A DNA stretch of 60,499 nucleotides, counting the filler, from Basidiobolus ranarum (Eukaryota), in the NCBI GenBank assembly GCA_040143965.1. It is 13 parts of 13 records of this genome, joined end to end, with 100 filler letters (N's around TTAATTAATTAA, not from the genome) between each part and the next. Parts side by side here need not be neighbours in the genome. Positions count along the whole stretch, not along the records: positions 28,021 to 32,583 come from JASJQH010008790.1; 12 more parts are not named here. One strand, 5' to 3'. The number at the start of each line of letters is the position of its first letter. The stretch's first letter is position 1. The translations under genes and the position numbers were made by a program. Below, piece after piece: positions 4,576-60,499 of this stretch. The notes below the pieces were generated by a model. It ran no database searches and was not told the DNA's origin. It saw only the letters and a list, made by a program, of their open reading frames with translations.

Positions 4576-4675
4576 NNNNNNNNNNNNNNNNNNNNNNNNN
4601 NNNNNNNNNNNNNNNNNNNTTAATTAATTAANNNNNNNNNNNNNNNNNNNNNNNNNNNNNNNNNNNNNNNNNNNN
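4576..4675. other. Artificial contig-joining spacer (first of 12)
   Basis: N44-TTAATTAATTAA-N44, giving stops in all six frames. The same spacer is at 9248-9347, 13920-14019, 18591-18690, 23257-23356, 27921-28020, 32584-32683, 37244-37343, 41899-41998, 46553-46652, 51206-51305 and 55855-55954. Contig lengths fall from 4575 to 4549. Confidence 0.98.
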
Positions 4676-7184: not shown

Positions 7185-8031
7185 AATAACCTGCCTATTT
7201 TTTATAATAAATTCAACCTTGAGATAGTTTTAACTATTGAATGCACTGAATTAAGGATATTTATGGCCTTAAAGGCTCCCTAAGTCTTGAAAGCACGAGC
7301 ATCAATAAGCGATATATTGTAAGAATAACATGGCAGTTTGAGAAATGACCATCAACTCCATTTCAGATCAATCGCATCTCAGCATTTATCTAGTGAAGTG
7401 TCGTGTATTTCCGTAGTCTTAGCGGGAATATACTTACTGCTCATGAGACATCTGGGACGTCACACAGCAGGATTCCATTTTAAGTTAATAACATGTTTGA
7501 AACGTGGCAATCTCCTTTAGCCGTGATATCTTGATCCTAGCAATGGTTGGCATCTATACATTAATAGGATAAAATAAATCACTGTATTTTGATAGCGATC
7601 GATAATTAGAGACCCAAGCAAGATTCAATATCCTCATCAGCTTCGATTATTTGGTATGCATTATTTAGTATGCATGTTCATAGTTGGCTGTATTGTGTAC
7701 ATTTAACTAAGGTCACGAAATCCCATTAAACCTCAATAATATGATTGGGCAATTGAATACTTTATTCAAGAAAATAAGAGACAACACTTCATCAAAAAAT
7801 GGTGAAGTGGTTTTACCAACAGTACATGAATATTGAAAAATAGAAAAATGTTGCAAGAGTAAAATAACTATTTTTGAAAAATATGCATATCTTGGATTAT
7901 TATGAAATAACAACAGAGTCCATTACCTAGTATGAGTACATATCTAAAGTTTTGGTAACGTCGATCAATAGTGGCAAACACAATTATATATGTACCCTCC
8001 AGCTAGTATCCTAAACTAATTTCACAGTATT

Positions 8032-9247
8032 CTACAATTGTAAAAATGATTCACGACCGGAAGGACACCGAGTCACTGTCACTAGGTTACATTTGGTATA
8101 ATAACCAACAGATTGCCGACAAATAGGTGTTATAACCCCTCCGGAAGTAGGTAAAGTATTTGGCGGTTCAGAAGACGATTTTTGCGTGGTAGGGGCTAAA
8201 GCACCATTGGAACTAGAGTCTTCAGTTGAAATATTGGAGGATTCACTTGATCTTTCTGTAGACAAAGAGATGGAAACGGAACTGGTACTTTCAACTGAAG
8301 AAGTGGATACAAGGGTTGATGATTGACTGTAGTTTCCAGTAGAGTCAATGGATGAAGATTGGCTAGAGCTTGGAACATACGAGGATGAAGAGTTCGAGCT
8401 TCCTGTTAGTGATGAAGTACTTGTGTATAACTCATTAGAACTATCAGTAGGGGAAATAGGTGTAGAATCACCAGAACTTTCGGCGGAAGAGGAGGTGGAA
8501 GAGAGAATGGTGCTTTCTAAAGATGAAGTAACTGATGTTGCTTCACCGGAGCTTTCGTTGGATGAAGAGGTGGAAGAGAGACTGGGGTTTTCTGATGGTG
8601 AAGTAGTTGACGTTGCTTCGCTGGAGCTCTCCGCAGATGAAAAGGTAGAAGAGAGACTGGTGCTTTGGGTAAGTGAAGTATTTATGGATGAATCATTAGA
8701 ACTTTCAGTAGGGGAAGTGGGTGTAGGCTCACTAGTGCTTTCGGTGGATGAAGAGGTGGAAGAGAGACTGGGGTTTTCTGATGGCGAAGTAGTTGACATT
8801 GTTTTGCTGAAGCTTTCGGCAGATGAAGAGGTGGAAGAGACACTGGTGCTTGCTAACGATGAAGCAGTTGACGTTGCTTCGCTTGAGCTTTCCGCAGATG
8901 AAGAGGTGGAAGAGAGACTGGTGCTTGCTAACGATGAAGTGGTTGACGTTGCTTCGCTGGAGCTTTCAGCGGACGAAACAGCAGAAGAGAGACTGCTGCT
9001 TTCTGATGATGAAGCAATTGACATTGTTTCGCTGGAGCTTTCGGCTGACGAAGAGGTGGAAGAGAGACTGGGGCTTTCTGATGATGAAGTAGTTGATGTT
9101 GCTTCGCTGGAGCTTTCGACAGATGAAGAGGTTGAAGAGAGACTGGTATTTTGGGTTAGTGAAGTATTTATGGATGATTCATTAGAACTTTCAGTGGAGG
9201 AAGTGAGTGTAGGCTCACTGGAGCTTTCTGTGGATGATGAGGTGGAA
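8032..9247 (-). CDS. C-terminal part of a Ser/Thr-rich repeat (mucin/adhesin-like) protein, 5' end missing
   Basis: The frame stays open to the contig end, with Ser/Thr/Glu-rich repeats followed by a short Cys-containing tail. The exact 3' end could involve an intron. Confidence 0.7.
8480..9247 (-). repeat. Coding tandem repeat with a 75-bp (25-aa) unit
   Basis: GAAGAGAGACTG recurs at about 75-bp spacing; the unit is roughly SLSSTSSSAESSSEATSTTSSLAST. A longer variant unit occurs near 8650-8760 and again near 9135-9245. Confidence 0.85.
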
Positions 9248-9428
9248 NNNNNNNNNNNNNNNNNNNNNNNNNNNNNNNNNNNNNNNNNNNNTTAATTAAT
9301 TAANNNNNNNNNNNNNNNNNNNNNNNNNNNNNNNNNNNNNNNNNNNNAAAGGCAAGAAAGGAGTAACTGATGTAAGGGGTCCTATGTAAATCCGATGTAG
9401 TGAACTTCATTAACATTTGATGGTATAG

Positions 9429-9683
9429 TTAACGCAGGCACTAGAGGAGTTGCCGCGAGTGCATTTGAATGTGTTCATATATCTGACTCATTTCTTAAAG
9501 ATGTTGATATTGAAAGGACCACCTAAAGATCCAGAGCTTGAAGAAAAACTAGCGGTGTTCTCATCAGTTCTAATGAGACCTCGGGATAAGTCGGGTCCAT
9601 TGGAGTACTCTGCTGTGAGAGAGAATTTGAGCTTACTAAGTATATATTTTGCAGAAGATGAAGAACTTCTTCAATTTCAGTAA
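9429..9683 (+). CDS. Last exon of a RhoGAP-like domain protein (OCRL/INPP5B-type C-terminus possible)
   Basis: LEELPRVHLNVFIYLTHFL...LAVFSSVLMRP fits the C-terminal RhoGAP helices. Upstream exons are cut by the contig start. Confidence 0.5.
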   Translation, partial: LTQALEELPRVHLNVFIYLTHFLKMLILKGPPKDPELEEKLAVFSSVLMRPRDKSGPLEYSAVRENLSLLSIYFAEDEELLQFQ

Positions 9684-10276
9684 ACTAGTAACTTTTATAG
9701 ATCAATAGTTAAATCAAGTAAATATTCGATTGAAAACAAAAGAACCATTACTGAAGTGAGCGGATTAGTATTAGAAACATACAGTCACAATGAAATATGT
9801 GTAAATCCTAATTCCTTGTCTTCCTCTTACTCTTCTCTTTATACTGGATCCATCGCATTGAAACGAGTGAACAAAGTAGCGCTTTATTGTGAGTTGATGT
9901 CGACCTGGCATTCCGAGTAGCCTATTCCGGAATAATTAAGGATTAATATGGAATTGAGATAGCCAATATTAGGTCCACTAAATACTTACCTCTTGACCAC
10001 GAGTGCAGAGAAATGCCAGTAGTACCTTAAAGTTGGTTCATAAGACTTAGTAAGATTAATAGCCAATGGAAACCAGACTAAGGTTAGTGTAACTAGCGTA
10101 TATATATATATGGTTCGAAGAGGTGAATTTGTTCCAATGAAATTAGAGAGATATGGGATATTCAAGAGTGGTTCGTTCAATCACTTCCATCCTGGGGAAT
10201 TATATTATAAAATGAATTAATGGACTTTCTTTCATTAAAACCATACTTTTCTCTTCTCTGGTAAAGTAGAAAAGTC

Positions 10277-11902
10277 ATGTCAAGTAATACGGGAAGCCAT
10301 TGGTAAGCGGAACATGTTTATCAAAATATTCTGCTGCTTTATTAATAATCTTTCTTGAAGGTCAAGAGTTGGCTACAGTACAAACTCGGAAGAACCTCAG
10401 GAGGGATTTTCGACTCACAACTTTCAACCTAATCAGCACGTTCATTCCCAGTCTCACTCCCATGCCCACTCTCATCCTCACGCTCAGACAGCTGAAAGCT
10501 TTGGAATAGCCTCACACACATATTCACAGCCGCATATTCAAGGAAATTACCAGATACCCGTAAACAATAATGAATTTCCTCATCTACGACAACATGCTCG
10601 AGAAAGATGTTCACATGAGCAGGAGCATCATGATCACAGTCATGACCATCAGCACCATAATCACAGTCATGATCATGGGCATGGACACGGGCACGGACAC
10701 GGGCATAGTGACTTACCCAAAATATCGGTCAGTAAAATCATGAGCAGTCTGGATCATGAACAGAAGAGGGTAATGACATATGGCTTGACGATGTTCACCA
10801 TTGGGATTATCGTCTGGGTGTACGGACACGCCACGGAAACCCTATCGATCATTGCTTTTTCATACTTTTTACTGTTTGATAGTTTCAATTTATTGATGAA
10901 TTTCACATCTCTTGTGTTGACCAATCATGAAACTTTCTCTCATTTCAAGAGTTCTCAATATCCTTATGGGTAAGTAAAGGTCATTTGGGGGGAGGGAAGG
11001 GAGATTGAAAGAACAAATGCTAATTTCAGTGGAAATCTTCAGTTTATTTAGGATGGTTACTTTGCTTGGTCTGTCCAATAGAATCTTCTTGATCTTCTCT
11101 GGAATGTATTCCATTAAGGAAGGGTTTGAACATGTGTTGCTTGGAGATGAGCATCACAGCATTGAGTTCTCTGTCGTCAAATGCTTACTGGTACTTGCAG
11201 CCATTGCCATGGCGACCTTTACGAAGTTGAACCATATAGGTATGACCTTTACATTCTTGTTCTCATGTTTCTTGTACTGATTAATCGCTTGTAGGAAGTG
11301 GAAGATCTTCTGTGTCTCGACTTCTACAAGAGCCTTTCAATATGATTGCCTTCTTATCGGGATTGGCGATCCTCCTTGTGGATATGCTTCCATTTGACGC
11401 GTGAGTAATGGATAGACAGAACTGAAGCAAGTTATAACAGTACTTAACCATGCATAATTTTAGCATACAAGCCACCTTCCTGGACCAAATCATCACTATA
11501 TGTGAATCCATTGGAATGTTTTACATCAGTTTCCCGGAGGCAGTGAAGTTTAGTAAGATTTTACTGCAAACAACACCCAAAGAGAAATTGAGTTCGATCG
11601 AACAGAGAGTCATGGAGGTATGGAGTGTTTATGTTTCCCCTCACCCTCACCCTCACCCTCATCCTTGTCCCATCCTAAACCTTTCTTTCAATTCTACATA
11701 GATCAATGCTCTACCACACGTACTGGAATGTAGAAACATTCATTTCTGGTCACCTACCAAGGATACCTTGATCGGTTCCATGGAGGTCTACACCGAATTC
11801 CACGCCAATGAACAACAAGTGCTAGAACAAGTTCACCGGATCACTGCCGGTCTGGTTAACGAATTAACTGTTCAAGTAAGCAAGAGAACGGATACAAGAT
11901 GA
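10277..11902 (+). CDS. Cation diffusion facilitator (CDF) zinc transporter, ZnT6/Zrg17-like, multi-exon
   Basis: ATG at 10277, first intron about 10303-10360. His-rich N-terminus (HHDHSHDHQHHNHSHDHGHGHGHGHGH), then TM2 FSYFLLFDSF, YPYG-x-R, KEGFEH, KILLQTTP, and a C-terminal domain IHFW...ELTVQV ending TGA at 11902. Confidence 0.85.
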
Positions 11903-14019: not shown

Positions 14020-17195
<3,176 letters not shown>

Positions 17196-17199
17196 TTAT

Positions 17200-17920
17200 T
17201 CTCCTACAACTGTGTCCCAAAATCCTTTTTCAAGCAGAAGCATTTTCATTTTAATTTTCCAAACTTGATAAATGAAGGAAAAGTTCCATGAATTTGAGAA
17301 GTAGATATTACAGAGAGTGCAAGCTTTGGGCTCATAACCTGTTAGAGTATTTAGGAGCCTGTTTGAAGCTGTTAGCAGAATTAGAGAAGTTGGTGGTTTT
17401 TGTTAGAGTGTTTGGGAGATGGTTGGAAGTGGTTTGGAGAATTAGAGGAATTGATGGTTTTCACTTATTGATTTATTGACTAGAAAGATGACATTTATAA
17501 TTTTGTCAAGATGTAACCAAGCTAATGTGTACACTGTATTAAAGAAGGTCCCAGAAATATATGTGTAAAGTTTGGGACTTCTAGCACAAATTTGAAAAAT
17601 CTATATATCTGAGAACTTCTAAGTTGCTATCAATATTCTAAGTAAATTCCAATTGAGAATCATTGATAATATCTTAGTGAATGGTAAGATAAATAAGTAC
17701 TAGGTTTTATATGACTATATTGGTGTTTAGGCAATGCTAATTTCAACACTCTCCCTCAAACAAATAGTCATATAAACTAATGCTAATAAATGTCTAAATT
17801 TCTCAAATTTCTGTCTAGCTAATGGTTTGGTTAATATATTGGCAATCATGTCTTCTGTAGAACAATAAGTGAAGTCAATAAACTTATTCTCTATAGTCTC
17901 TCTAATGAAGTGATGCTTAA
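17200..17920 (-). mobile_element. Nested family-A pieces: RNase H end, PPT and full LTR (17401-17748) joined to a partial LTR (17340-17400), primer-binding site and gag start
   Basis: EDMIANILTKPLARQKFEKFR, PPT at 17749-17757, and primer-binding site (PBS) GGTTATGAGCCC at 17339-17328. Confidence 0.85.
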
Positions 17921-20605: not shown

Positions 20606-23256
20606 TCAAGTTATGGCTCCATTACCATTGAGAAGAGTGTACCCAGTTAATGATCTTCTATCACCAAGGTATGTTACCCAGTCTGCATCACTGTAGCTTT
20701 CAAAATTTTGTGCAACAGGATGGCCAGAATAATCAGGAACCAGACCTACAGTTCCTCTCAAATATCTCAGTATTTGTTTTACTGCCATTGTGTGCTGGTA
20801 TCCTGAACTTTGGAGATTTTGGCTGACAGTTCCCAATGCAACAGCAATGTCTGGGTGTGTTCCAACCACTGTTTTCATTAAAATACCCACCATGGATTGA
20901 TAAGGGAACTCCTGGCTTTGATGTGAGTCATTTTGGGCCAAATTGGACAAACTTTTGTTTCATTTCACATTGGGATCCATTGGTATCAATACAGGTTTGC
21001 TATTCTCCATTTGGAAGCATTTTAGGATGTCTAGAATGTATCTAGGCTAATTCACCATAATATTCTGCTTTAGTTTATTTCTCGTGATTTGGAAACCAAG
21101 AACATAAGTTAATTCATCTATTTTGGTCATCTGAAATTGATTTAATAAGCTGCTTTTTTCCTGATTAAGTGCTTCTGTATCATTTGTGGCTGTGATCAAG
21201 TCATCCACATATAGTGCCAAGGTTATTGACTGTGTAGAGTACCAGGTTTGATCCAATGGAGCTAAACATAGCTACTGATGCAAAGGAATGATTTGCATTA
21301 GCTGCTGGAGCTTATGAATTACCTTTAGCAACTAATCTTCCTTTGAACCATTTTATCGTTCCTGCAGCTCAGTTTTTGACTTTATTGGCCCATTTGCAAC
21401 CTATTGGCTCTCTTCCAGAAGGTAGACGACTTAACATATACATGTTATTATCCTAAAGTGGAAAAAACAGATCCAAGATTATGTTTTCCATCATTTTGAT
21501 TCTGGACACTCTGAAGCTTGGTCAGTGGCTCCTCACTGAGTGCCAGTTCTTTCTTAACCATTGCTTTGCAGGGCCTGAATGTAGACAAGGCTTCAGATTT
21601 GGATCTTAGAAAGAATACCCAAGTATATGTTGTTTTGTCCTCAATAAAGGTCATTAAGTACCTTTTGCCACTTAATGAGGCATTTTTCTTGGGCCCACAT
21701 AGGTCAGAGTGGATGAAAGCAAAATTGTCTGGGAATTCCATCTCTCCAGAGCTTTGGAATGGCTGTCTGTGATGTTTTTGATATATGCAACCTTCATGCA
21801 GATCCTGTTTGGTGATAATTTCAATTATTAAGCCTGAAAAGTGCAGATTTCAGATCATTTGAGTCAGTAATTGTTCCTCAAAGTGGACAAATCTTCTATA
21901 ACATGTTTGACAGCTTATTTCACTTGTTTTGGCCAAGTTTGCATGCTCAGCATGCAACTTGTTAATCTTAGGCTTGTATAAGCTTTGAGTTTTGATCCCA
22001 GTAGCTAACTTGATGTTATTCTGATCTTTGATAGCACATCTAGCATAACTGGGCACAAAATTTAGTCATTGAGTTGGTGCTTGGCTTACTGAGAGTAGAT
22101 TCTTGGCTACACTTAGTACATAGATTATATCAGCCAATTTTGCAGATGGGGTAGCTAAATCTGGGACTAAATTTATCACAACTGTGCCCTTACCAACTGC
22201 ATCTAGTGCATAGTCACTATCTATGTAGACTTTCCTTATTGGATGTGTCTTATGATGGAAAACCAATCTTTCTTCTAAGACGTGTTTTGGAAAGTTCTTG
22301 AATCAATGTAAAACATTTATGCATCTTCTTTGAAGGTTACTGAAAGGGCAGCCACAAGTAAATAATCTCTTTCAGTGCTTACTTGCTTTTCTTGTTCCAA
22401 TTTTAGCTTTTTGGCACAAATCTTTCTTTTGCATTCTTTGATTAAATGACCTGGTTTCTTGTAATACTTGCAGATTATTCATTTCCTATGAGATACACTA
22501 TTATTGAGGCCTGTTTAACATTTCATAGCTCTAGAAAATTCTTGAACTGCATTATTTTGCTCAAAATTAAATCTTATTAACTCCTCATTCAAAAGTTGGG
22601 CACCAACATATTGCATTGTTAATGGCTCTGATCTGGATTTAAGGGCAACTATGAGGCTTGCAAACATGTCTTGCAGGCTCCCTGATAGTGTGATTACTAA
22701 TTAATCTTAATTTATAGGTGCTTAGCCATAGAATCATCAGAATTCATTGGAATTGGGAATAATATTCATCTAAGATATAGCTTATTAGCCACAAACTCAG
22801 TATTATATAGCCCCTCAAGTGTTTCCCAAGCAGTTTAGACATTTATGGCTGAGTGTATATGCCTCAATTGAGAGTCTCTGTGATGTAGACAAAATGTAGA
22901 GAGTGCTTTCCTCTGCTTCTTGTGATATGCAAGGAAAGCATCTGGTGGTCCCTTTAGCTCTATTTCTTCATCTGTAGCAAATCCCCAGAGGTCCTTGGCT
23001 TCTAGCACCATTGGTATCTTGAGCTTCTAAAGAAAATGTTCTTCACCATCAAATTACTCTGTGGATGCAAAAACATTGGTAATAGTACTGGTGGACATAA
23101 CTTTAACAGCTAGCTTGGGGTTCATAGTGTGACAATAGTGCTTAGTGATAAAAGTGTTTAGGGGATTTGGAAGTGTTTTGGACAAGATTTGGATTTGTGA
23201 ATTAGACACTTAAGTTTTATTGAATTGAATATGTCCTATTTATAGTTTACTATGAA
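20606..23256 (-). mobile_element. Decayed Ty1/Copia element, family B (partial 5' LTR, gag, PR, integrase, RT pieces)
   Basis: IHSDLCGP, LALYVDDLI and YSDADW motifs. The LTR end matches 47650-47760. Internal deletions. Confidence 0.92.
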
Positions 23257-23697
23257 NNNNNNNNNNNNNNNNNNNNNNNNNNNNNNNNNNNNNNNNNNNN
23301 TTAATTAATTAANNNNNNNNNNNNNNNNNNNNNNNNNNNNNNNNNNNNNNNNNNNNAAATACTTTATTAAGACACTAACAATCACATCATTCATCAGCCC
23401 ACGTGACTCATAGTGGATCATCGCCAAGCTTAAACTATGGGCAATATCGATATGATCTAATCATTAAAGCTTGGTTCGATTTTGTTAAAAGGAAGGTTTT
23501 TATGCTAACGCTCACTATTCAAAGATTTTTCGAAGACTGGTGTTTTCCCATTTTTCTACAGGAATTGACCTCTCCTCTGCAAGTTAGTCAAAAACCTTAA
23601 ATTTTGAAACTGAGTATTCCTTTGGTTAACCTTGTTTGTTGTATTTCAAAGCCTCCATAAATTCTAATATTATTACCGCTCAAGTATAAAGCCAGAA

Positions 23698-25929
23698 ATG
23701 ACAACCGTTTTAATCGATAACTACGATAGTTTTACCTGGAACGTTTACCAATATTTATGCGCAGCTGGTGCTGACGTTGTTGTGTTTCGTAACGATAAAA
23801 CCACCGTCGAACATGTAGCCTCTTTAAATCCAAAAAATCTAGTTATTTCCCCTGGCCCTGGTCATCCTTCAGAAGACGTTGGAATTTCGAAAGATGTCAT
23901 CCGTCATTTCGCCGGAAAGATACCTATTCTTGGTGTTTGTCTTGGTCAACAATGTATGTTCGAGATATATGGCGGAAAAGTCGTATTTGCTGGGGAAATT
24001 GTACACGGCAAAACTTCTGAAGTAACCCATGACGGAAAAGGTCTGTACCATGGAGTTCCACAGGGAATTGCTGTTACTCGTTATCACTCTCTTGCCGGGG
24101 ATTCTGTGGTTATACCGGATGACTTGGTTGTAACCAGTCGCACAGAGTCTGGAGTTATCATGGGTGTTAGACATAAAGAATATTGTGTTGAAGGCGTCCA
24201 ATATCATCCTGAGAGTATTTTGAGTGAACATGGAGCAACTTTGATCAAGAATTTCTTGAATTGTCGAGGTGGTACCTGGAAAGAGAATCCAGAGCTAGAG
24301 TTCATTTCAGGTAGCACTGAATCAGTCCCTAAGGCAAACGGTATTAATGGGGGGAAATCTCAAACTATCCTCGAAAAAATTCATCAACAGCGTATTTTGG
24401 ATGTCGCTGAAGCTAAAGCTACTCCTGGTCGCTCAGAGGCTCAACTCCAAAGAATTTACGATTTGGGTATTGCTCCACCCCAAATTGACCTTGTTGCCCG
24501 ACTCCGTCAAAGCTCAGGAAAACCCGCTGTGATGGCTGAGATTAAACGTGCCTCACCAAGTAAAGGGGATATTAATGTTGATGCCATCGCAGCTGAACAA
24601 GCATTGATATACGCAGAAGGCGGTGCTTCAGTTATTTCCGTACTCACTGAGCCCAAGTGGTTCAAAGGTTCCCTACAGGACTTGCGTCAAGCTAGAGAAA
24701 GCATTTCAAAACTACCAAATCGCCCAGCCATCCTTAGAAAAGACTTCATCATTGATCAGTATCAAATTTTGGAAGCTCGCTTAGAAGGTGCTGATACCAT
24801 CTTACTCATTGTTGCTATGTTAGAAGATGATCAAATCCAGAGTCTTATGAAATACTCCAGATCTTTGGGTATGGAACCGCTTGTTGAGGTCAACAACACT
24901 GATGAAATGAAAAAAGCACTTGCTTTTGGTGCTAAAGTGATAGGAGTAAATAATCGAAACCTCCATACATTTGATGTTGATATGGAGAACACTAGCAACC
25001 TAGCAAAATTAGTCACACGTGATGTCATTCTTGCCGCACTCAGTGGAATTACCGGACCAGAGGATGTAGCGAAGTATACTGAACATGGTGTCGGCGCTGT
25101 TCTGGTTGGAGAAGCTTTGATGAAGTCTCAGGATAAGAAGAAGTTCATTCGCAACTTGATCCAATCGGAAAATACCAAATTTACTCAACCATCAGCTCCC
25201 TTAGTCAAAATCTGTGGTGTTCGTACGGTAGATGCGGCCGTAGCAGCTGCTACAGCTGGAGCAGACTTTATTGGGTTGATTTTCGCGCAATCTCCCCGTC
25301 AGGTCTCTCTGCAGGATGCTTCGGAAATTGTAGCAGCAGTTCGTGAAGTTTCCTTCCAAACGCCAAACTCTGATATAGCTGAACAGTCGGGGGAAATCAA
25401 AGAATGGTTCCGCTTTCACGCAGATAATGTAGTCAACGGACCAAAGCCATTGATAGTGGGAGTATTCCAGAATCAAAGTGTAGAGTACATCACATCAGTC
25501 GTTCAACAGGTAAAGCTTGACTTGGTGCAATTGCATGGAGAAGAGTCGGTGGAGATCGCCAAATTCTTGCCTGTACGTGCTATTAAGGCATTCCACATTG
25601 ACGACTCAACCAACAATTTTAACGAATTACGCAAGCCTGGCTATAATGCATTCACTTTACTTGACGCCAAAGTAGGAGCAAAGCAGCAAGGTGGAAATGG
25701 AGTGGCATTTGATTGGAAAATCGCCGAGAGATTCTTGAATGACTCTGAAACTTTCGAAGGCATCCCATTCCCGATTCTCTTGGCTGGTGGATTGACTCCA
25801 GAGAATGTGCAGCAGGCTGTGAACCAGGTTCATCCCTGGGCAGTAGATGTATCAAGTGGAGTGGAAACAAATGGAGTCAAGGATCTGCAAAAGATTCGGG
25901 AATTCATAAAGTATGCCAAAAGCGAGTAG
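23698..25929 (+). CDS. TRP1: Trifunctional tryptophan biosynthesis protein (anthranilate synthase component II, IGPS, PRAI)
   Basis: Intronless 743 aa. Glutamine amidotransferase: [82 protein letters not shown]. This is the fungal G-C-F order (Aspergillus trpC equivalent). Confidence 0.98.
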
Positions 25930-27678: not shown

Positions 27679-27920
27679 TGTTAAAGTCTTTGGGAGCCTG
27701 TTGGAAGTGGTTTGGAGAATTAGAGGAATTGGTGGTTTTCACTTATTGATTTATTGAGTATCCAGTTGACGTTTATAGTTTTGTCAGGGTGTCAACAAAC
27801 TAACGTGTAGAATGTGCTACGAAAGGTCCCAGACACATGTGTGCAAAGTTTGGGGCTCCTAGCATAAGTTTAAAAAATTAATATATCTGAGAACTTCTAA
27901 GTAAATTCCTCATGAGAATA
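27679..27920 (-). mobile_element. Copia family A LTR, cut by contig end
   Basis: TGTTAAAGTCTTTGGGAGCCTGTTGGAAGTGGTTTGGAGAATTAGAGG is the reverse complement of the LTR-A 3' end. Confidence 0.88.
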
Positions 27921-31295: not shown

Positions 31296-31644
31296 GTAGA
31301 ATCTGTTAAGTAGTTGGGGGAGTGTTGAAAGTAGTTTGGAGAAGCAGAGAAATTAGTGGTTTTTGCATGAAGATTTGTTGAGTCGAAAGTTGAAATTTAT
31401 AGTTTGTCATGATGTAAGTAAACTAATATGTAGAATGTGCTAAGGAAGGTTCCAGGAATATATATGCAGAGTTTGGGCTACTAGCACAAGTTTGAAAAAT
31501 CTATACCTCTGATGATTTCTAAGTTGGTAACAATATGCTTAGTGAATTCCAATTGAAAATAAGGGGTAATATCTTGGTGAAATATGAGATATCCAAGTAC
31601 CTAGCTATATACAACTATATAGATACTAAGGCACAGCTAATTTC

Positions 31645-31925
31645 TGTTGAAATTATTTAGGGAGAAATATTGGTCTGACCAGGATTTGAAACTGGGACCT
31701 CCTTCACTCTAGCAAGGTGCTCTACCACTGAGCTACCAGTCCTTGTATGCTATGCCTATATTGCTATGGAACCTTAACCTAGACTGTCAATGTATGATAC
31801 TTTGGCATTTCAGCTATACAAGCAACTGATTGGCCTTAGACTTTGTGTTCAGATGCAGTCACCATACTCCATATTTTCCTCTTTGGGAATTGCTGCTTGT
31901 ACCACAAGTCACCAGACTTTCAACA
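31645..31925 (-). mobile_element. 281-bp solo-LTR-like element carrying a tRNA-derived sequence (Helenus-like TRIM LTR)
   Basis: 8-bp terminal inverted repeats TGTTGAAA/TTTCAACA. Perfect 5-bp TSD ATTTC at 31640-31644 and 31926-31930. Internal tRNA-like segment. Partial copies at 58018-58093 and 60394-60499. Confidence 0.85.
31671..31742 (-). pseudogene. tRNA-derived sequence (A box and B box) within the LTR-like element; not a canonical tRNA
   Basis: GGACTGG-TA-GCTC-AGTGGTA-GAGC-A-CCTTG-CTAGAGT-GAAGG-AGGTC-CCAGT-TTCAAAT-CCTGG-TCAGACC-A. It has cloverleaf spacing but mismatches in the acceptor, anticodon and T stems. Confidence 0.85.
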
Positions 31926-32683
31926 ATTTCAACACTCTCCCTCAACTGAGAGACATACAAACTAGCTATAAGGAAGGTCTGATTTTCTCAAATTACTGTC
32001 TAGCTAATGGTTTGGTTAGTATATCAGCAATCTTGTCTTCTATAGAATAAAAAGTTAAGTCATTAAACTTATTCTCTATAGTTCCTTCAATGAAGTGAGG
32101 TCTAATATTAATATGTTTACTCTTATTGTTAAATATGGAATTTTTAGCTAATTTGATACAACTTTGAGTTTCATGAAATGATGTAGTGGTTGAGTTTTGA
32201 GAATAACCTAATTCTGTTAAGAGTTTTCTTGACCACATTGCTTCTTTTTTTGCTTTACAGGCAGTTTTTTATTCTGCTACAGTTGTTGAAATTGATACAG
32301 TAGGTTGTTTCTTTAAATTCCAAGAAATATCACTATTGCAGCAAAAAAATAAGTTTCCTGTTGTAGATCTCCAGTCTTCAACATCTCTCTCTCCCCCTAT
32401 CTGCATCTGAATATCTGCTCAGATCAAGGTTTTATCCAGAACATATGCACTTTGAGCACACATTAATACCCTAACAAAAATAAAATCGATTTGATCCGGA
32501 TTGGATCCACCCTCCAAAATAGCAAAACCGTCAGAGAACCGTCACAATATCGTCGGCTTGCATTCTGCCAGGGATTTTGATGGNNNNNNNNNNNNNNNNN
32601 NNNNNNNNNNNNNNNNNNNNNNNNNNNTTAATTAATTAANNNNNNNNNNNNNNNNNNNNNNNNNNNNNNNNNNNNNNNNNNNN

Positions 32684-46552: not shown

Positions 46553-47637
46553 NNNNNNNNNNNNNNNNNNNNNNNNNNNNNNNNNNNNNNNNNNNNTTAA
46601 TTAATTAANNNNNNNNNNNNNNNNNNNNNNNNNNNNNNNNNNNNNNNNNNNNATTACAACTGTGGCCTTACCTACTGCATCCAGTGCAAAGTCATCACCT
46701 AAGTAGACTTTCATTGTTTTGATAGGTTTTAAGTTGGAAAGCCAATCTTTCCTGTTTGACATGTGTTAGGAAGCTCCTGAATCAATGTACCACCTTTCTG
46801 AGTCTTCTTAAGTGGTTACTGATAGGGCAGACACAAATAGCTGAGTGCTTACTTAAGTTGCTTGTTCCAATTTTAGCTTTTTGGCAAAAATCCTTTTTCC
46901 ACAATCTTTGATTGAATTGCATGCTTTCTTGCAATACTTGCAGATGATTAATTTCCTAATTGGGGCCCCATTATCAAAGCCTGTTGGATGTTTTACAGCT
47001 CCAAAAAATGCCTGTTCTGGATTATTTTGCTGCCATTTATATCTCCTTAATTCTTTATTCATAAGCCCAGCACCAACATATTCCATTGTTAAAGGCTCTG
47101 ATCTTGATTCTTTGGCAATTATGAGGTTCCTAAACTTGTCTGGCAGGCTCCCAAGTAGTGTCATGACAAAGTCATCTTCTTGTAAAGGTGCTCTAATGGA
47201 TGAGAGCTGATCTGCCATAGTTTTATCTGATTTTTTAGGATTAATCAAAGGGTCATCTGGATTCATCTGAATTGTGAACAATTTTTGCCTAAGATATAGC
47301 CTATTAGCCAGATCTTTAGTCTCATAGAGTTCCTCAAGCGTTTCCCAAGCATTTTGGATGTTTTTAGCAGACTGTATGTGCCTCAATTGAGGATCACTGA
47401 GATATAGAGAAAAGTGTAGAGAGTGCTTTCCTCTGCTTCTTGTGAAAGGCAAGGATAGCTTCTGGTGGTCCCTTTAGCTCTATTTTTTCGGCTATAACAA
47501 ATCCAGAAAGGTCCTTGTCTTCTAGCACCATTTGCATCTTGAACTTCCAAAGGTGAAGGTCTCCACCATCAAACTTCTCTGTGGATGCAAAAACGTTGGT
47601 AATAGTACAAGTAGACATTCCTTTAGCAGCTAGCTTG

Positions 47638-48000: not shown

Positions 48001-51000
48001 TGCCCACTCAACTAATTATCTTGTAATTCTGTTAAACCTAACTTACATCTGAATGATTCAAATTGTGCTTTATCTAAAGGTTTGGTTAAGATATCAGCTA
48101 TCATTTCTTCAGTATGGCAATAGACAAGTTCAATTATATCATTCTCTATTGCTTCTCTAACAAAGTGATGCCTAATCGCTATATGTTCTGTCCTAGTATG
48201 AAATGTAGGATTTTTAGCTAATGAAATACAACTTGGATTATCTTCAAATACAGTAATAGCATGCTATTGCATGTTTCCTCAGTCTTTAAATAACTTCCTT
48301 AATCACATAGCTTCTTGTGTAGCAGCAGAGGCAGCCAGATACTCAGCTTCTGTAGTGGAAAGTGCTATGATTGGTTGCTTCATACTATTCCAAGTTATGG
48401 CTCCATTACCATAGAGAAAAGTGTATCCAGTTGTAGATGTCCTATCATCAAGGTTTCTTCCCCAGTCTGCAGCACTGTAGCCTTCAAAATATTGTGCATC
48501 AGGAGTGGCAGAGTATTTCACAACTAGATCTACAGATTCTCTCAAAACCTGAATATTTGTTTTACTGCCGTTTTGTGCTCAGTTCCTGGATTTTTGAGAT
48601 ATTGGCTGACAGTTGCCATTGCCACTGCAATGTCTAGACATGTTCCAACCATTGAGTGTATGTCTCTTGATTTGGATTCCAAAAAAATAACTTAATTCAC
48701 CCATATCAGGCATCTGAAATTGGTTTGATAAGCTGCTTTTTTTTGATTAAGTGCTTGTAGATCATTTGTGGCTATTATTAGGTCATTCACATATAGTGCC
48801 AAGATAAGAATCCTATTTACAGTATTTTTGATGTAAATTCAGTGATCTGCTGTGCATTTTTGGAATTCCAGAGATTCCAAATAGGCATCTATCTAGTTGT
48901 ACCACACCCTGGGTGCTTGCTGAAGTCCATAGAGTGATTTTGCAGTTTACAGAGTATATTGGGATGTTTTGGGTCAACAAATCTGCCTGGTTGCTCCATA
49001 TAGCTCTCTTCTTCTAGGTTTCCATTCAGAAAGGTTGTTTTTACATCCATTAGATGTAGATCAAGGTTGTAGATGGCTGAGAGTGCCAGGATTGATCTGA
49101 TGGAGCTAAACCTAGCAACTGGAGCAAAAGTTTCATTAAAATCAACTCCTGGGGTCTGGGAATAGCCTTTTGCAACTAATCTTGCTTTTTACCTTTCTAT
49201 GGTTCTGTCATCATGGTTTTTGACTTTGTGAACCCATTGGCAACCTATTGGCTTTCTCTCTGATGGAAGAGGACTTAAACCCACATTTTATTGTCTTGAA
49301 GTCAAGAAAACTCATCTGACATTGCTTTTTCCCATAATTTTGATTCTGAACACTCCAAAGCTTTTATCCAGAGTCTTTGGCTCTTCACAGAATGATGCAT
49401 AAGCATATACATCATCATTGAAGGTGTTCCACCAGTTTCCTGGCTTATTTCTCCTTCTGGATGATCTTCTGGGTCCTGAATCATCTTTTGATGTAATTGG
49501 GACTGGAGTGTTTGTTGAATAGGGCTCAGATACAGCTGGGATTTTGTCAGACACTTCCTGAATAGTGCTGATTGTGTTTTCTGGATCAAGCAATTGATTT
49601 GAGGTGAAAAATTTGGTTTATCAAATAAAAACCACATCTCTGCACTTAATTAACTTCTGATGTTTGGTATCAAAAGTCTGTAGGTCTCGGATCCATCACC
49701 ATAACCAAGAAATATGCATTTTCTGCTTTTGGGTTCCAATTTTGAGTGTTTTTGAGCTGGAATTAGGCAGTATGCTGTGCAACCAAAGATCCTGAGATGA
49801 TCCACACTTGGTTTTGATCCATATAGAGCTTCAAATGGAGTAGAATTTTGTAGTAATCTTGTTAGGCATCTGTTTTTGATATAGACTGCAGTGGAGACAG
49901 ATTCAGCCCAATATTGGAAATCTAACTTTTGATCATGTAACACTGATCTTGCCATGTCCACTATGGTCCTGTTAGCACATTCTGCAACTTCATTTTGCTG
50001 TGGAGTATAAGGTACAGTAGTTTGTTGCTTAATTCCATGTTTGGGGTACAAACTAGCAAAGTCTTTAGAGCAGTATTCTCCACCATTATCACCCCTTAGT
50101 ACCCTTATTTTTTGTGCTAATTCTTTCTCTACCATTGCTTTGTAGTGCTTGAACGTAGCTAAGGCTTCAGATTTTGATTTGGGAAAGAGTACCTAAGTAT
50201 ATCTTGCTTTGACATCAATAAAGGTCATAAAGTACCTTTTCCCTCCCAGTGAGACGTTTTTCATGGGCCAACATAGGTCAGAATGAATCAGGGAAAAACT
50301 CTGCGTGGATTTGATCTCTCCAGAGCTTGAAAATGGCTGTCTGTGAAATTTTCCATATATGCAACCTTCACCAGATCCAATTTGGTGATATTTCCAATTT
50401 CCAAGCCTGAAACAAGCTGATTTTGGATCATTTGGGTCAGTGTTTTGTTCCCCAATATGGCCTATTCTTCTATGCCATGGTTGTCAGCTTATTTCCCAGT
50501 TTGGGCCAAATTTGCATGCTCAGAATGCAATATGTTGGTTTCTAGCTTGTACAAGTTTTGGTTTTGATCCCAGTAGCTAATTTGGTATTATTCTGATCTG
50601 TGATAGTGCATCCAGCCTTACTGAACACAAAATTTAACCCTTGAGTTGTTGTTGGCTAGCTGAGAGTAGATCCTTGGCTATATTTGGGACATAGAGTACA
50701 TCATCTAATTTTGCAGATGGTGTAGCTAAATATTGGTCTGAATTGAGCACAACTGTTCCCTTACCATCTGCATCAAGTGCAAAGTCATCACCTTAGTAGA
50801 CTTCCTTGTTTGGATTGGTTTTAAGCTGAAAACCCATTTTTACTGTTTGACATATGCTGGGAAGCTCCCAAATCAATGTACCATGTATCTGAGTCCTCTT
50901 TGGTGGTTACTGATAGGGCAGATGCAAACAGATGATTTCTATCAGTGCATACTTGATTTGCTTGTTCCGATTTTAGCTTTTCAGCACAAATCCTTTTTCT

Positions 51001-53320
51001 GCAATCTTTAATTAAGGAGCCTGATTTCTTGCAATACTTGCAGATGATTAATTTCCTAATAGGGGCACCATTATTGAAGCCTGTTGGATGTTTAACAGCT
51101 CCAAAAAATGCCTGTTCTGCATTATTTTGCTGAGAATTAGATCTCCTTAATTCTTCATTCAAAAGCCTAGCACCAACATATTCCATTGTTAATGGCTCTG
51201 ATCTTNNNNNNNNNNNNNNNNNNNNNNNNNNNNNNNNNNNNNNNNNNNNTTAATTAATTAANNNNNNNNNNNNNNNNNNNNNNNNNNNNNNNNNNNNNNN
51301 NNNNNATCTACTACAGATGCAATTTCCCAAACCCCTAGGAAATCACAGTTAGATATTGGATTGTTCTCTTAATACGCTAACATAAATTAATAATCACCAC
51401 AACTGCTTATGGTATTTGTAATAAAATATCGACGTATATAGTCCCACATGGATGATCTCATAAGCGGGGGAAGATTATTGCCAGCAATGAATCATCGTTT
51501 GTGTCTCCATGCCTGCTAATATTTATGGCAATTGTAAGAGTGGGGTAAAGGATCCCTGTCGAATACACATGATTCCAGTAGCACTCCTATGCTGCTGTAT
51601 CTAGTTACCAAATTGTTCGTCTACGCTCAAACACCTTCCCTATATAGCTGGATCGATTCAAGCACCGCCGTACTTGACCATGCAACCGCGGCATATGCAA
51701 ACAGCCATTTACCCCACAAAAGTGCTTCAAGGAGAATTGTATAGATACGACCAAAAGAAGGAATATCCTTTAAGTGCTCACTTGAAGCATGTGATGGCTA
51801 GCCACTCCAAACAACTCGCTCTTTACTTCATAGGCGTTGGTGCTTCATGTGACCATCACTAAGATAACTCGGATCAAAACTTCTGGAAAATACCTACTGG
51901 CTCCAGCTACCAATTTGAATTACGATAAAGGTTGTTTGAAAATCGACGTTCTATGCGTGTACAAAGCTACCCTACACGACATATTCCGGGCGCAAATTAC
52001 TCTACATAGACACAACCTCCTTGAATTCTTGAGTCACCTTAGCGCTCATTCTATGAAATATGTGCAACGAATGAAACCCGACCAAGTCAGCCAAAACGAA
52101 AACTTGGGTTAATGGATTCAGTGGAATGTATAGGAAATCGAGTGATGATTCGGTACTAGTGAAAATTGAATCCCACTCCGTATTTGGAAATCGTAGAGAA
52201 AGCTATATACAGATAATATATATGGATTTAGATGCGTTCACTCGAGTCGCACATGAATTCATCAAGGACACCCATGGAATATGTCAGTTACTATTTTGTG
52301 TGCTCAATGACAACTATCCAAGCGTTTATTGGAGGGGCTGGCCTGGTTACCTGAGCTACAAAACCCTTGATGGAATGCAATATGCACGTATTTCCTAGGA
52401 ACAAATCATGATGATGAGATGACTTGATCTGAGCATTGCTCGCAACTACACCGGCCCCGAGGTCCCGATGACCGTTTCATATTAAAAAACTGAATAATGA
52501 ACAAACCGGATACAGCTTCGGAATAACCGTTGCAGTTCTTTATGGATGAACCATACGGAATACTAGAGATTAGCCACCTAACCTGTCAGTCCACAGAAAC
52601 ACATGTAGACTTATATGCGCAACACGCTCTTGAAATGGAAATATCTATTTAGCGCAATACAACAATATCGCGCCGGCATATTTGATGTACGGCATGATAC
52701 AATCATGAGCCTAGCATACTAATCTAAGTTGGTTTATATCCACGGACTTTAAAACTCCTCCTTCTATTACACGGCCTATCTCCCGTCAGAGGTGATCTTT
52801 TAGTGATGTTATACACCAGGCCATACACAGAAGATATTCAGAAACCCGGCACACATTTGAGATCTTTTCTGTTGTAGTGCTTCAGAAAACATCACCCCCT
52901 TTACCAAACCTTTTTCTTCGCATCAGTGTAAAACACTCGTATAGGCTTTGCAAAGTATCACTCGTATTTTCATATGAAATTTCTTTTTCGGGGGAAATCT
53001 GCTGTAAGTAATAATCGAAAATGATACGTGGGATTGAAAGTGACACCTTCCTTTTTGAACCATTTGGTAGTTGGCATAATTCAATCATTTAGTTCAGAGA
53101 TCAAAGAGGCGTACAGAAAGGATTAGTGGTGATGACTGTTGCACAGCAACGGATTCTCTAAGCTTTATTGGTCACCTGCTTGAGTTGTCAAAAAAACTAA
53201 GATGTAATAAATTGTAAATCTACAAAGTAACGGCGATCTTCTATAAAAGAGTTGTGCCCTCGGAGGGGTAAGCTTAATCACCTCAGTTCGCTGTTAGTAT
53301 ATCCTTTATATTTGCAAATC

Positions 53321-56749: not shown

Positions 56750-58559
56750 ATACAGGTACAAGGTTAGACTAGTAGCCAAAGGCTATTCCCAAACACCAAG
56801 AATAGATTTACTGAGACTTTTGCTCCTATAGCAAAGTTTAATTCAACCAATTGATTTACAGCAATTTCAGCTAAACACAAATTTATAATACATCAAATGC
56901 ATGTTAAAACTGCTTTTTCAGATATTGAGCTTGCTGAGCAGATCTATATAGACTAGCCAAATAGATATGTGGACCTCAAAAGCCCCAAAAGAGTTTGTAG
57001 AACCTGGAAAATACACTATGGTGTAAACAATCTGCAAGAGCTTGGAATAGCAAGATAGATGCATTTTTGGAAACACTCAAATTCCTAAAGGGTAATGATG
57101 ACAATAGTATCAGCTTCAGGCCAAATTAAACAAACCAATTCTTATTAGCCTCACATGTTGAGGACCCTGTTATAGCAGCCATTCACTGAAAGAACTTGGA
57201 GAGAACCAAATCCAGCTTATTGGTTAAATTTCAAATGATTCATCTTGGTGAACTGATGTAATACCTTAGAATCCAAATTAAGATAGGTAGAACTACCAAA
57301 ACCATAACTTTAAAGCAGTCCTAGATATACTTAAGAAGTTTAAAATGGAAGAATGTAATCTTGTATCTACCCCAATGGAGACATATCTTAACTTGACCAA
57401 CAATGGCTTAAATCAGAAATTCTTGGATTCAAATGAAAGCCAGATATTTCCCTATCAATCTATATCTGGTAGTTTGATGTGTATTATGGTGGGAACATAT
57501 TCAGATATTGCATATTCTGTGAGAGTTATCTGCAAATATCTTCAAAATTATGAATCTAACCAAGTCATAGTAGCTGAGTGAATTTTCAGATATTTGAGAG
57601 GTGCTGGGGATCTGTACTTAATATACTCATATACTGGATCAAACTTTGATCTGATGAGATATTCATATTCAAATTGAGGAAGAGATGTTGAAGACAGGAG
57701 ATCAACAACAAGATACTTATTTCTTTCCTGCAATGGAGCTATATCTTGGAATTCAAAAAAATAACCTACCATGGCACTTTCAACAGCAGAAGAAGCAAAT
57801 ATGGCTGCCTGTGAGCCAACAAAAGAAGTGATATGGTTATGAAAGCACTTAACAGATTTAAGCTATTTGCAAAATTCACTAATCACAATATTTCAAGACA
57901 ATCAAAGTGGTATCAAATTAGCTTGAAATATCACATTTCATAATGGAAACAAACATTTTGATATTAGAGTTCACTTCATTGAAGAGACTTTAGGAAATAA
58001 GTTTATCAACTTAAGTGTGTTGAAAGTCTGGTGACTTGTGGTACAAGCAGTAATTCCCAAAGAGGAAAATATGGAATATGGTGACTGCATCTGTATTGTT
58101 CTAAAGGACACATGATTGCTGATATATTAACCAAACCATTGGCTAGACAGAAATTTGAGAAATTAAGACCTTTTTAAGATTAGTTTATATGACTATTTAG
58201 TGCAGGAACAGCATCAAAGTTAGCATTGCCTAAGCACCTATAAAGTCACATATAGCTTAGTACTTAGTTATCTTATATTTAAATATGATATTACCCATTA
58301 CTCTCAATTGGAATTAACTTAGAATACTTTTGCCAACCTAGAAGTTCTCAGGTATACAGATTTTTCAAGCTTGTGCCTAAAGCCCCAAACTTTGCAGACA
58401 CAATGCTGGGACCTTCCTTAACACATTCTTCTTGTTAGTTTACTTACATCTTGACAAAGCCATAAATGTCAACTTTCTTCTCAATAAATCAAAAAGTGGA
58501 AACCATTAATTTTTCTAATTCTCCAAACTACTTCTAACAGCCTCCCAAATACTTCAACA
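56750..58559 (+). mobile_element. Copia family A RT-RNase H and 3' LTR (about 58212-58559)
   Basis: Collinear with 15457-17195. Interrupted at 58018-58093 by a fragment of the tRNA-bearing element. Confidence 0.9.
58018..58093 (+). mobile_element. 5' fragment of the tRNA-bearing LTR-like element
   Basis: TGTTGAAAGTCTGGTGACTTGTGGTACAAGCAG...GGTGACTGCATCTG is near-identical to the reverse complement of about 31850-31925. Confidence 0.88.
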
Positions 58560-60393: not shown

Positions 60394-60499
60394 TATTGAA
60401 ATTATTTTGGGAGAAATATTGGTCTGGCCAGGATTTGAACCTGGGGCCTCCTTCACTCTAGCAAGGTGCTCTAACCACTGAGCTACCAGTCCTTGTATG
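60394..60499 (-). mobile_element. 3' part of the tRNA-bearing LTR-like element, cut by window end
   Basis: Collinear with 31645-31749. The terminus TTTCAATA abuts ATGAGCCCC of the family-A PBS. Confidence 0.88.
60420..60492 (-). pseudogene. tRNA-derived sequence within the LTR-like element (second copy)
   Basis: GGACTGG-TA-GCTC-AGTGGTTA-GAGC-A-CCTTG-CTAGAGT-GAAGG-AGGCC-CCAGG-TTCAAAT-CCTGG-CCAGACC-A. D and T stems are intact; A box TAGCTCAGTGG, B box GGTTCAAATCC. Confidence 0.85.

Follow-up and report, generated by a model that had tools for sequence, protein, structure and literature searches.

A tRNA-bearing, LTR-like mobile unit inserted in a copia-like LTR of a Basidiobolus-like fungus, with resemblance to Helenus elements

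In one of the fungal contigs analysed here, the long terminal repeat (LTR) of a copia-like retrotransposon is split by a short insert that carries a tRNA-shaped sequence. This raises the question of what kind of mobile DNA the insert represents, and of whether its tRNA-like part could serve RNA polymerase III (Pol III) as its promoter. The stretch of DNA analysed (the window, 60,499 nucleotides) is made of 13 contigs of about 4.55 kb each, joined by spacers of the form N44-TTAATTAATTAA-N44. The TRP1 protein encoded in the window matched that of B. ranarum at 81% and that of B. meristosporus at 80%, the next best match reaching at most 61%.

The insert, hereafter unit E, is a proposed solo LTR of 281 bp at positions 31645-31925 and reads TGTTGAAAGTCTGG...AATAATTTCAACA on the minus strand. 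On the plus strand the order is ATTTC (31640-31644), TGTTGAAA...TTTCAACA (31645-31925) and ATTTC (31926-31930), and the termini TGTTGAAA...TTTCAACA are perfect 8-nt inverted ends. E interrupts, after the ninth base, the 3' LTR of a copia-like element (LTR(P); 31304-31934, minus strand, ends placed by alignment). Directly 5' of this host LTR lies the polypurine tract (PPT) GAGGGAGAG (31935-31943, minus strand), which is also present in the contig-4 copies, and beyond it a C-terminal pol ORF (...ADILTKPLARQ; 31993-32268, minus strand). This ORF has no Pfam match of its own; it is 78.7% identical in DNA sequence to the pol region of contig 4 at 16332-16850, which comes after an ORF matching RVT_2.

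Five other copies of LTR(P) in the window are 76-78% identical to the host LTR. In four of four paralogous copies, the 281 bp and one ATTTC (GAAAT on the minus strand) were missing as a single clean gap, so that the pentanucleotide was present only once; one such empty site, GAGGGAGAG joined to TGTTGAAATTAGCATTGCC, lies at 17719-17757 (minus strand). Both the sequence and the empty-site comparison define the right-hand copy of the duplication as well as the left-hand one. When the whole window was scanned for perfect 8-nt inverted ends flanked by 5-nt repeats, at a spacing of 200-400 bp, E was the only match. E is a discrete and mobile piece of DNA whose insertion duplicated 5 bp, a length that was read from one complete copy. 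A preliminary description of this DNA had reported a 281-bp insert with an ATTTC duplication splitting the terminus of a Copia LTR, and the sequence and the four empty sites bear out its coordinates.

The resident family, Copia-P, has LTRs of the form TGTTG...CAACA followed by the primer-binding site (PBS) GGTTATGAGCCC, and neighbouring elements match the Pfam domains Retrotran_gag_2, gag_pre-integrs, rve, Pol_BBD and RVT_2, which assigns them to Copia. The canonical LTR/PBS junction of contig 4 reads ...TCTAACA followed directly by GGTTATGAGCCCAAAGC (17323-17340, minus strand), and by reference to it the host LTR(P) ends in ...ACTTAACA at 31304. We take GGTTATGAGCCC to be a PBS of the initiator-tRNA (tRNA-iMet) anticodon-loop type, the window itself containing no iMet gene, and the Copia-P junction is presumably closely similar to that of Drosophila melanogaster copia. 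LTR(P) copy c4a has the same first 8 nt as E (TGTTGAAA), with slight differences in copies c4b and c1, and copies c13 and c1 have the same last 7 nt (TTCAACA). Because E shares its ends with the copia-like LTRs resident here, it is best read as an LTR inserted in the manner of an integrase, in line with the earlier proposal that TG...CA ends with a 5-bp duplication are an integrase footprint.

Inside these termini E did not resemble LTR(P): most of 12 comparisons of its interior with LTR(P) remained at shuffle level, and the best one, between reverse-complemented E and one copy, was matched by 19 of 300 shuffles. The similarity of the 3' sub-terminal 14 nt of E to LTR(P) 3' ends was weak (165 to 2294 of 16902 random 14-mers scored equally in 12 comparisons) and was therefore not used to set the orientation of E. 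Two other arrangements of contig 7 were considered and rejected. Two Copia elements sharing one LTR tail to tail would need a PPT at GTTGGGGGAG (31314-31323), a sequence that instead belongs to the terminal 19 nt of LTR(P). Taking E for the host Copia's own 3' LTR does not account for the 9 nt TGTTGAAAT that separate the PPT from E, nor for LTR(P) resuming as GAAATTAGC... after it; these fit only a simple insertion.

The tRNA-like module of E is 72 nt long (E184-255; 31671-31742, minus strand) and lies in the sense orientation of the unit, with 26 nt of minus strand between its 3' end and that of E. Such a tRNA shape had been noted in the preliminary description, and ARAGORN (Ser(AGA)) and Rfam (RF00005, 48.6 bits for a gathering score of 29) agree with it. 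The corresponding module of a second copy of E (60420-60492, minus strand) was also called Ser(AGA) by ARAGORN, at 72-73 nt across both copies, and scored 58.6 bits. The A box TAGCTCAGTGG is intact in both modules (31725-31735 and 60475-60485). The B box is intact only in the second copy (GGTTCAAATCC, 60431-60441, with GGTTC present) and is degenerate in E (GTTTCAAATCC, 31682-31692, with GTTTC instead of GGTTC). Similarly, the minimum-energy fold was a cloverleaf for the second copy and not for the module at 31671-31742, and the fold energies of both RNAs were no better than those of shuffled sequences (z = +1.00 and -0.03). The tRNA part is the best-conserved and most GC-rich segment of E (0.53 versus 0.40 and 0.23).

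A class II tRNA-Ser is expected to have a long variable arm, for which 72-73 nt is too short. Both modules carry an A3-A70 mismatch and an anticodon-stem mismatch, and these stem mismatches, together with a Ser(AGA) call without a long variable arm, set them apart from functional tRNA genes. An origin of E by read-through copying of a primer tRNA was rejected, as the tRNA would then be antisense and follow U5, whereas in E it is sense and precedes the end of the LTR.

The sequence of E is compatible with Pol III transcription, in which the tRNA-like module would have the role of promoter. The sense strand contains no run of four or more T. The depletion of T runs is not significant, TTTT being absent from 1114 of 5578 (20%) 281-bp segments of this DNA and from 38% of E shuffles. 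Against a Pol III role, E has no internal Pol III terminator, so that the predicted transcript would stop in flanking DNA. A TATA-like motif, AATATAGG (31755-31762, minus strand), begins 20 nt upstream of the 5' end of the tRNA-like module and could have a promoter function. Neither R nor a polyadenylation site, as internal LTR landmarks, could be assigned within E.

The window contains one complete and two partial copies of E, with a family identity of 95-97%. The second copy (E176-281; 60394-60499, minus strand) ends TTTCAATA and is cut by the contig end; positions 60396-60499 are 95.2% identical to E over 104 columns, and the two copies differ at 6 of 106 nt, both lineages taken together. 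The third is a fragment (E1-76 only; 58018-58093, plus strand) that lies inside the pol C-terminal coding region of an element named Copia D, is preceded by coding sequence at 58018, and is identical to the first 76 nt of E at 74 positions. It is missing from the homologous pol of contigs 4 and 7 and has no visible duplication. The preliminary description regarded these as independent copies of a mobile family: both are real and lie on a different contig from E, but both are partial. It had also held that absence of the tRNA part from most copies would speak for a one-off insertion; the fragment at 58018-58093 lacks this part and the copy at 60394-60499 has it.

Within the window we saw no two-LTR copy of E, neither an interior nor a PBS or PPT belonging to it, and, among its copies, no direct junction of a PPT with E. 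An exact 22-mer of the tRNA-like part had no match among metagenome, viral and genome contigs, an exact 24-mer of the E 5' end had none among metagenome contigs, and blastn of E against plasmids gave no match. A protein-word search with an 80-aa ORF reaching from E into the Copia leader gave no candidate. A 14-nt match to E at 50728-50741 was taken as chance, since it sits in unrelated Copia sequence.

Several known systems combine a small-RNA gene with a short mobile element. The closest are the fungal Helenus elements (TRIMp3), for example LTR-1_PTrit of Puccinia triticina (Kojima, 2024; PMC10886601). As described there, their LTRs carry a sense tRNA-like sequence with a box A TRGCY..YGG and a box B GGTTC, most show a mismatch between predicted isotype and anticodon, with 'Ser-AGA' calls being common, and the LTRs measure 120-323 bp and are unlike those of the Copia partner. 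Fungal members have 5-bp duplications, mostly an iMet anticodon-loop PBS, a Copia partner and frequent solo LTRs (PMC10886601). A Helenus element is described as having two LTRs around a short non-coding interior, with a PBS and a PPT, in less than about 1-1.3 kb in all. Compared with these published descriptions, E is alike in its tRNA-like LTR with A and B boxes and its 5-bp duplication, and its putative Copia partner would have the same type of PBS; its 281 bp fall inside the 120-323 bp range, its interior is unlike the Copia-P LTR, and its Ser(AGA) call shows the isotype mismatch. It differs in its Basidiobolus-like host and in that one copy adjoins coding Copia sequence.

The other systems are less similar. 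Cassandra, a plant TRIM with 5S rRNA in its LTRs, also has a small-RNA-gene Pol III promoter module inside an LTR of a non-autonomous element, both the promoter role and the non-autonomous state being putative in E; however, the module is 5S and not tRNA, the hosts are plants, and Pol III transcription was demonstrated for Cassandra whereas for E it is a prediction. tRNA-derived SINEs (SINE2) share with E a short interspersed form and tRNA-derived A and B boxes, but they have a 5' tRNA head, a LINE-type tail and variable duplications, whereas the tRNA part of E is at 184-255 of 281, its ends are TG..CA and it has no tail. Copia elements of the Drosophila copia and yeast Ty5 type resemble Copia-P, with its TGTTG...CAACA LTR ends, in its presumed anticodon-loop tRNA-iMet priming; E differs from elements of this type in that it codes for nothing and has only its termini in common with the Copia-P LTRs. 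Ty5 and copia are both named as users of this priming mode (PMC10886601).

The explanation that we prefer, giving it about an even chance, is that E is a Helenus-like solo LTR, left by an element of a Pol III-driven family that was inserted by the Copia-P integrase. The Copia-P integrase would have inserted an LTR retroelement 9 nt inside the Copia-P 3' LTR, the family being, on this reading, non-autonomous and Helenus-like (TRIMp3-type). Transcription by Pol III would begin where the tRNA-like sequence of the 5' LTR has its 5' end, so that R-U5 would measure about 98 nt, and would continue across an initiator-tRNA anticodon-loop PBS and a short interior to reach the 3' LTR. The transcript would then be reverse-transcribed, and the copy integrated, with the proteins of Copia-P, and LTR-LTR recombination would leave the solo LTR behind.

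The second copy of E bears on a different view, which is a good deal less probable and still substantial, that E belongs, as an LTR, to a Copia lineage of full length that has coding sequence and is driven by Pol II, autonomous or formerly so, in which the tRNA piece is an R/U5 passenger. Such a passenger could be, for example, an old SINE or tRNA-gene insertion, 31645-31925 then being a solo LTR and 60394-60499 the true 5' LTR of an element named Copia C. The E 3' end is directly adjoined by a PBS-like sequence, ATGAGCCCCAAGC (60381-60393, minus strand), which is the Copia-P PBS minus GGTT, and gag follows on the same strand as E (59615-60325, minus strand; Retrotran_gag_2, E = 1.1e-18; motif KLDGINYQVW at 60296-60325). 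The copy ends 4 nt from the expected 5' LTR/PBS junction of a Copia that bears gag and integrase in the same orientation, and a random insertion would fall 10 nt or less from such a junction in about 0.2-0.8% of cases (a rough estimate from junction counts). The TATA-like AATATAGG could equally serve Pol II. Moreover, 'not a few' Repbase LTRs are stated to have tRNA-like parts, the Helenus name being kept for elements under 1 kb (PMC10886601). The copy at 60394-60499 may therefore belong, as an LTR, to a large autonomous element, an outcome that the preliminary description had named as contrary to its own proposal. However, insertion of E into the PBS explains this junction equally well. The junction lacks GGTT, and its derivation from ...CAACA joined to GGTTATGAG requires a 4-nt deletion and one substitution, whereas an insertion into the PBS with a duplication of ATGAG requires only CA>TA. 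E also seems younger than Copia C: its two copies differ at 6 of 106 nt, whereas Copia C has 22 lineage-specific changes over 286 ungapped columns and at least eight in-frame stops in its translation, a weak contrast (p about 0.04-0.2). This copy loses its left flank at the contig end, and the 3' LTR that would partner it also falls outside the contig.

If E is the solo LTR of a small element, its tRNA-like module might be inert, a captured fragment in an ordinary Pol II TRIM or LARD. The non-canonical stems of both modules (A3-A70 and anticodon-stem mismatches), the mutated B box of the complete copy, the lack of a terminator and the shuffle-level fold energies would agree with this. We consider it improbable: both copies keep a perfect A box and one of them a perfect B box as well, and the tRNA part is the segment that is best conserved and richest in GC. 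In Helenus, conservation of this kind was read as promoter function, also without experiment (PMC10886601). The small size of E, its perfect 8-nt inverted ends and the want of assignable R and polyadenylation sites could in turn suggest a DNA transposon resembling a MITE, or an insertion of another kind that is no retroelement. This is very improbable, since the 8-nt end coincides with the terminus of the Copia LTR family in this DNA (expected by chance about once in 65,000), the duplication is of equal length, and one copy stands in LTR position beside a PBS and gag. Among DNA transposons, 5-bp duplications are rare, which also argues against a MITE.

The positions of the copies allow a further suggestion, which we consider unlikely. 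Two of the three lie 10 nt or less from a junction of PPT with LTR or of LTR with PBS, and Copia-P elements contain all three, in the same orientation. E copies might not insert at random but seek out the LTR/internal junctions of the very Copia family on which their mobility depends. Homing could proceed, for example, through integration into the DNA of the partner or through recombination in the course of co-packaged reverse transcription. Coding Copia interiors would then be capped by tRNA-promoter LTRs, an 'LTR takeover' in a lineage for which the main text of Kojima (2024) lists no Helenus.

The preliminary description put the novelty of E too high, fungal Helenus elements with exactly these traits being already published (PMC10886601). 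E represents no new kind of system, both the concept and a fungal version of it being on record in that paper, and it is probably a further, new member of the described kind of tRNA-bearing LTR elements. Only the host lineage would be new, as had also been suggested. The fungal Helenus hosts given by Kojima (2024; PMC10886601) are Pucciniales and two Agaricales species in Table 1 and Amylostereum areolatum in the text, all of them Basidiomycota, and no Basidiobolus-like fungus is among the main-text hosts. If confirmed genome-wide, the Helenus/TRIMp3 range would widen from Basidiomycota to an early-diverging fungal lineage, with which the Copia partnership and the PBS type, as read here, would also be shared; this would bear on whether such elements had a single early origin in fungi or repeated ones. 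In practice, retroelement LTRs may lie behind 'tRNA-Ser(AGA)' calls in genomes of this kind. Repeats of this sort also break short-read assemblies, and one of the E copies described here ends a contig.

The sequence analysed (60,499 bases) is made of 13 separate contigs of 4,545-4,575 bp each, in descending order of size, joined by spacers of the form N44-TTAATTAATTAA-N44 (for example 4576-4675 and 32584-32683); it is not one locus, and distances measured across a spacer are meaningless. E, the 281-bp unit with a tRNA-like module, is in contig 7 (28021-32583), and both other copies of E are in contig 13 (55955-60499). Copies used for comparison are in contig 4 (14020-18590), and contigs 1 and 6 were likewise useful. 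On the plus strand, positions 31640-31930 read ATTTC, then TGTTGAAA...TTTCAACA (281 bp), then ATTTC; on the minus strand E reads TGTTGAAAGTCTGG...AATAATTTCAACA. The ends, the ATTTC duplication and the length given in the preliminary description are thus correct, and when the entire window was scanned for 200-400-bp units with a perfect 8-nt inverted end and a 5-nt flanking repeat, this site alone came up. Five further copies of the LTR interrupted by E, that of the resident copia-like family Copia-P, occur in the window (76-78% identity). Aligned with the filled site, four of these show one clean gap that covers E together with one GAAAT; the empty sites read GAGGGAGAG|TGTTGAAATTAGC.... This comparison with paralogous empty sites is the strongest evidence that E is an insertion; E is a real mobile insertion with well-defined boundaries.

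E lies inside the 3' LTR of a minus-strand copia-type element, in which the C-terminal pol ORF (...ADILTKPLARQ, 32268-31993) is followed by the polypurine tract (PPT) GAGGGAGAG (31943-31935), the LTR start TGTTGAAAT, E, and the remaining LTR to 31304, all on the minus strand. Among neighbouring ORFs there are matches to Retrotran_gag_2, gag_pre-integrs, rve, Pol_BBD and RVT_2. A first impression of inward-facing PPTs flanking the LTR was ruled out by the contig-4 copy, which extends about 19 nt past an internal motif that nearly repeats its end, and finishes in ...TCTAACA directly followed by GGTTATGAGCCCAAAGC and the gag leader. The near-repeat (...CTACTTTCAACA CTCCCCCAACTACTTAACA) recurs at 31304-31323, 58540-58559, 1611-1630 and 27679-27698; read on the opposite strand, the LTR end mimics a PPT plus LTR start and can mislead boundary calling. 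GGTTATGAGCCC is a putative primer-binding site (PBS) which, judged by the anticodon arm of the eukaryotic initiator tRNA, we take to be of the anticodon-loop (3'-truncated tRNA-iMet) type; the window contains no tRNA-iMet gene. Contig 4 carries, in order on the minus strand (17196-17913), a pol C-terminus, PPT, LTR, PBS (GGTTATGAGCCCAAAGC) and gag N-terminus, which looks like two tandem elements with one common LTR. The last 60 nt or so of that LTR are tandemly duplicated (17340-17460), and the gag stub runs on into an inverted LTR copy (16855-17195). Other copia-type gag and integrase ORFs (46853-47473, 49650-50192, 50821-51249 and 21448-21849, all minus strand) belong to other families, which blastn does not align to Copia-P. 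The assembly is rich in several Copia lineages.

The first 8 nt of E are those of one contig-4 copy of the Copia-P LTR (c4a; c4b and the contig-1 copy c1 differ slightly), and it ends with the same 7 nt as c1 and the contig-13 copy. Sub-terminal likeness is weak, and the interior of E has no significant similarity to the Copia-P LTR. Because an identical 8-nt terminus would arise by chance about once in 65,000, we consider E to be, very probably, an LTR that was processed by the Copia-P integrase and is now a solo LTR; that the unit is a MITE is, by comparison, highly improbable.

The 72-nt tRNA-shaped sequence noticed earlier on the minus strand was recovered by both ARAGORN (anticodon AGA, 31671-31742) and the Rfam tRNA model (48.6 bits, gathering score 29). 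It occupies E184-255 and is therefore in sense direction, ending 26 nt before E does. No other part of E is as rich in GC (0.53, versus 0.40 and 0.23), and a TATA-like AATATAGG begins 20 nt upstream of it. The A box TAGCTCAGTGG is perfect in both tRNA-bearing copies and the B box is good in one. A class II serine tRNA cannot be 72-73 nt long, the size of the Ser(AGA) call, and both modules have an A3-A70 mismatch; the module is therefore a pseudo-tRNA. TTTT is absent from the sense strand of E, but so it is from 20% of 281-bp windows in the stretch. E also contains no Pol III terminator.

Of the two other copies, one (60394-60499, minus strand) comprises E176-281 and is truncated where the contig stops. 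Against complete E it shows four substitutions and one indel in 104 columns, plus a terminal CA>TA, and its tRNA-like part is better kept (Rfam 58.6 bits, B box GGTTCAAATCC, cloverleaf as minimum-energy fold). Its last base directly adjoins ATGAGCCCCAAGC..., the Copia-P PBS without GGTT, past which a leader, gag (KLDGINYQVW; Retrotran_gag_2) and integrase follow on the same strand. The other copy (58018-58093, plus strand; E1-76 only, 74 of 76 positions identical) sits where another Copia-P element encodes the C-terminal part of pol, and homologous pol sequences in contigs 4 and 7 do not have this insert. The tRNA part is missing, no target-site duplication is visible, and the copy was presumably truncated by a later deletion. 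All three copies lie within Copia-P elements in the orientation of the host, two of them 10 nt or less from an LTR/internal junction. If both junction-proximal copies are insertions, this non-random placement suggests junction homing, or recombination with the partner element, a lead that comes from three copies.

The model that best fits the anatomy of E is that of Helenus/TRIMp3, miniature LTR elements that carry a tRNA-like sequence and are driven by Pol III; we give a Helenus-like reading an even chance. Pol III would start at E184 within the 5' LTR, the transcript would extend into the 3' LTR by way of the PBS, a short internal region and the PPT, and the remaining steps would be carried out by Copia-P proteins. 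The main competing explanation, which we judge possible but rather unlikely, is that E is the LTR of a coding Copia, of which 60394-60499 would be the 5' LTR. This copy does sit where such a 5' LTR is expected, and a random insertion with that position and orientation is very unlikely (about 0.2-0.8%, a rough estimate from junction counts). However, GGTT is missing at the junction, and origin from a canonical LTR|PBS requires a 4-nt deletion and one substitution, whereas insertion into the PBS with duplication of ATGAG requires CA>TA only. E also appears younger than the adjoining Copia: the two E copies differ at 6 of 106 nt, and the Copia beside 60394-60499 shows at least eight in-frame stops and, over the 286 ungapped columns compared, 22 lineage-specific changes, although this age argument is weak (p about 0.04-0.2). 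Were the copy a true coding-Copia LTR, E would belong to a large element, an outcome that the preliminary description itself had named as counting against its proposal.

Fungal Helenus is described as having LTRs of 120-323 bp that contain a tRNA-like box A and box B, a predicted isotype that disagrees with the anticodon (with many 'Ser-AGA' calls from rust genomes), duplications of 5 bp, the same length as in Copia, and frequent solo LTRs (PMC10886601). According to the same source, most families carry a pseudo-tRNA module, the PBS is mostly directed against the tRNA-iMet anticodon loop (the dominant type; Ty5 and Drosophila copia are known to prime in this way), and the partners are Copia elements whose LTRs are unlike those of Helenus (PMC10886601). 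E agrees with this description in every testable trait, including the pseudo-tRNA module and the 5-bp duplication; the two-LTR miniature structure, which defines Helenus, lies outside those traits. As fungal hosts, Table 1 of that article gives Pucciniales and two Agaricales species only, and its text adds Amylostereum areolatum (Kojima, 2024; PMC10886601). Full-text searches, judged by listings and abstracts, turned up no account of such elements from Basidiobolus or any other early-diverging fungus. Most likely, E is a solo LTR of Helenus-like type with a tRNA-derived module, in a host lineage unlisted for such elements; its novelty would lie in that lineage, the kind of element being already known.

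Host genes were also found in the window. An intron-free frame of 753 aa for tryptophan synthesis (23668-25929 from stop to stop, plus strand; Pfam PF00117, PF00218 and PF00697) contains the trifunctional TRP1 ORF (23698-25926), the product of which is 81% identical to a Basidiobolus ranarum protein and 80% to one of B. meristosporus (next best matches at most 61%); a more distant B. ranarum paralogue in the database covers 73% of the query at 71% identity. Further ORFs match Peptidase_M18, Aldedh, FGGY, GNAT and Lipase_3. These genes are fungal, and we accordingly regard the source as an early-diverging fungus resembling Basidiobolus. An ORF with a His-rich stretch (HSHDHQHHNHSHDHGHGHGHGHGH) and hydrophobic segments after it (10359-10973, plus strand) had no Pfam match at E <= 0.001; it may encode a portion of a metal transporter. 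A long, repetitive Ser/Thr-rich ORF with SSSAESSSEATSTTSS... units (8032-9291, minus strand) reaches the contig end; an acidic ORF of equal length lies on the opposite strand (8333-9295, plus), and GC skew is strong around it (0.295 in 8001-10000).
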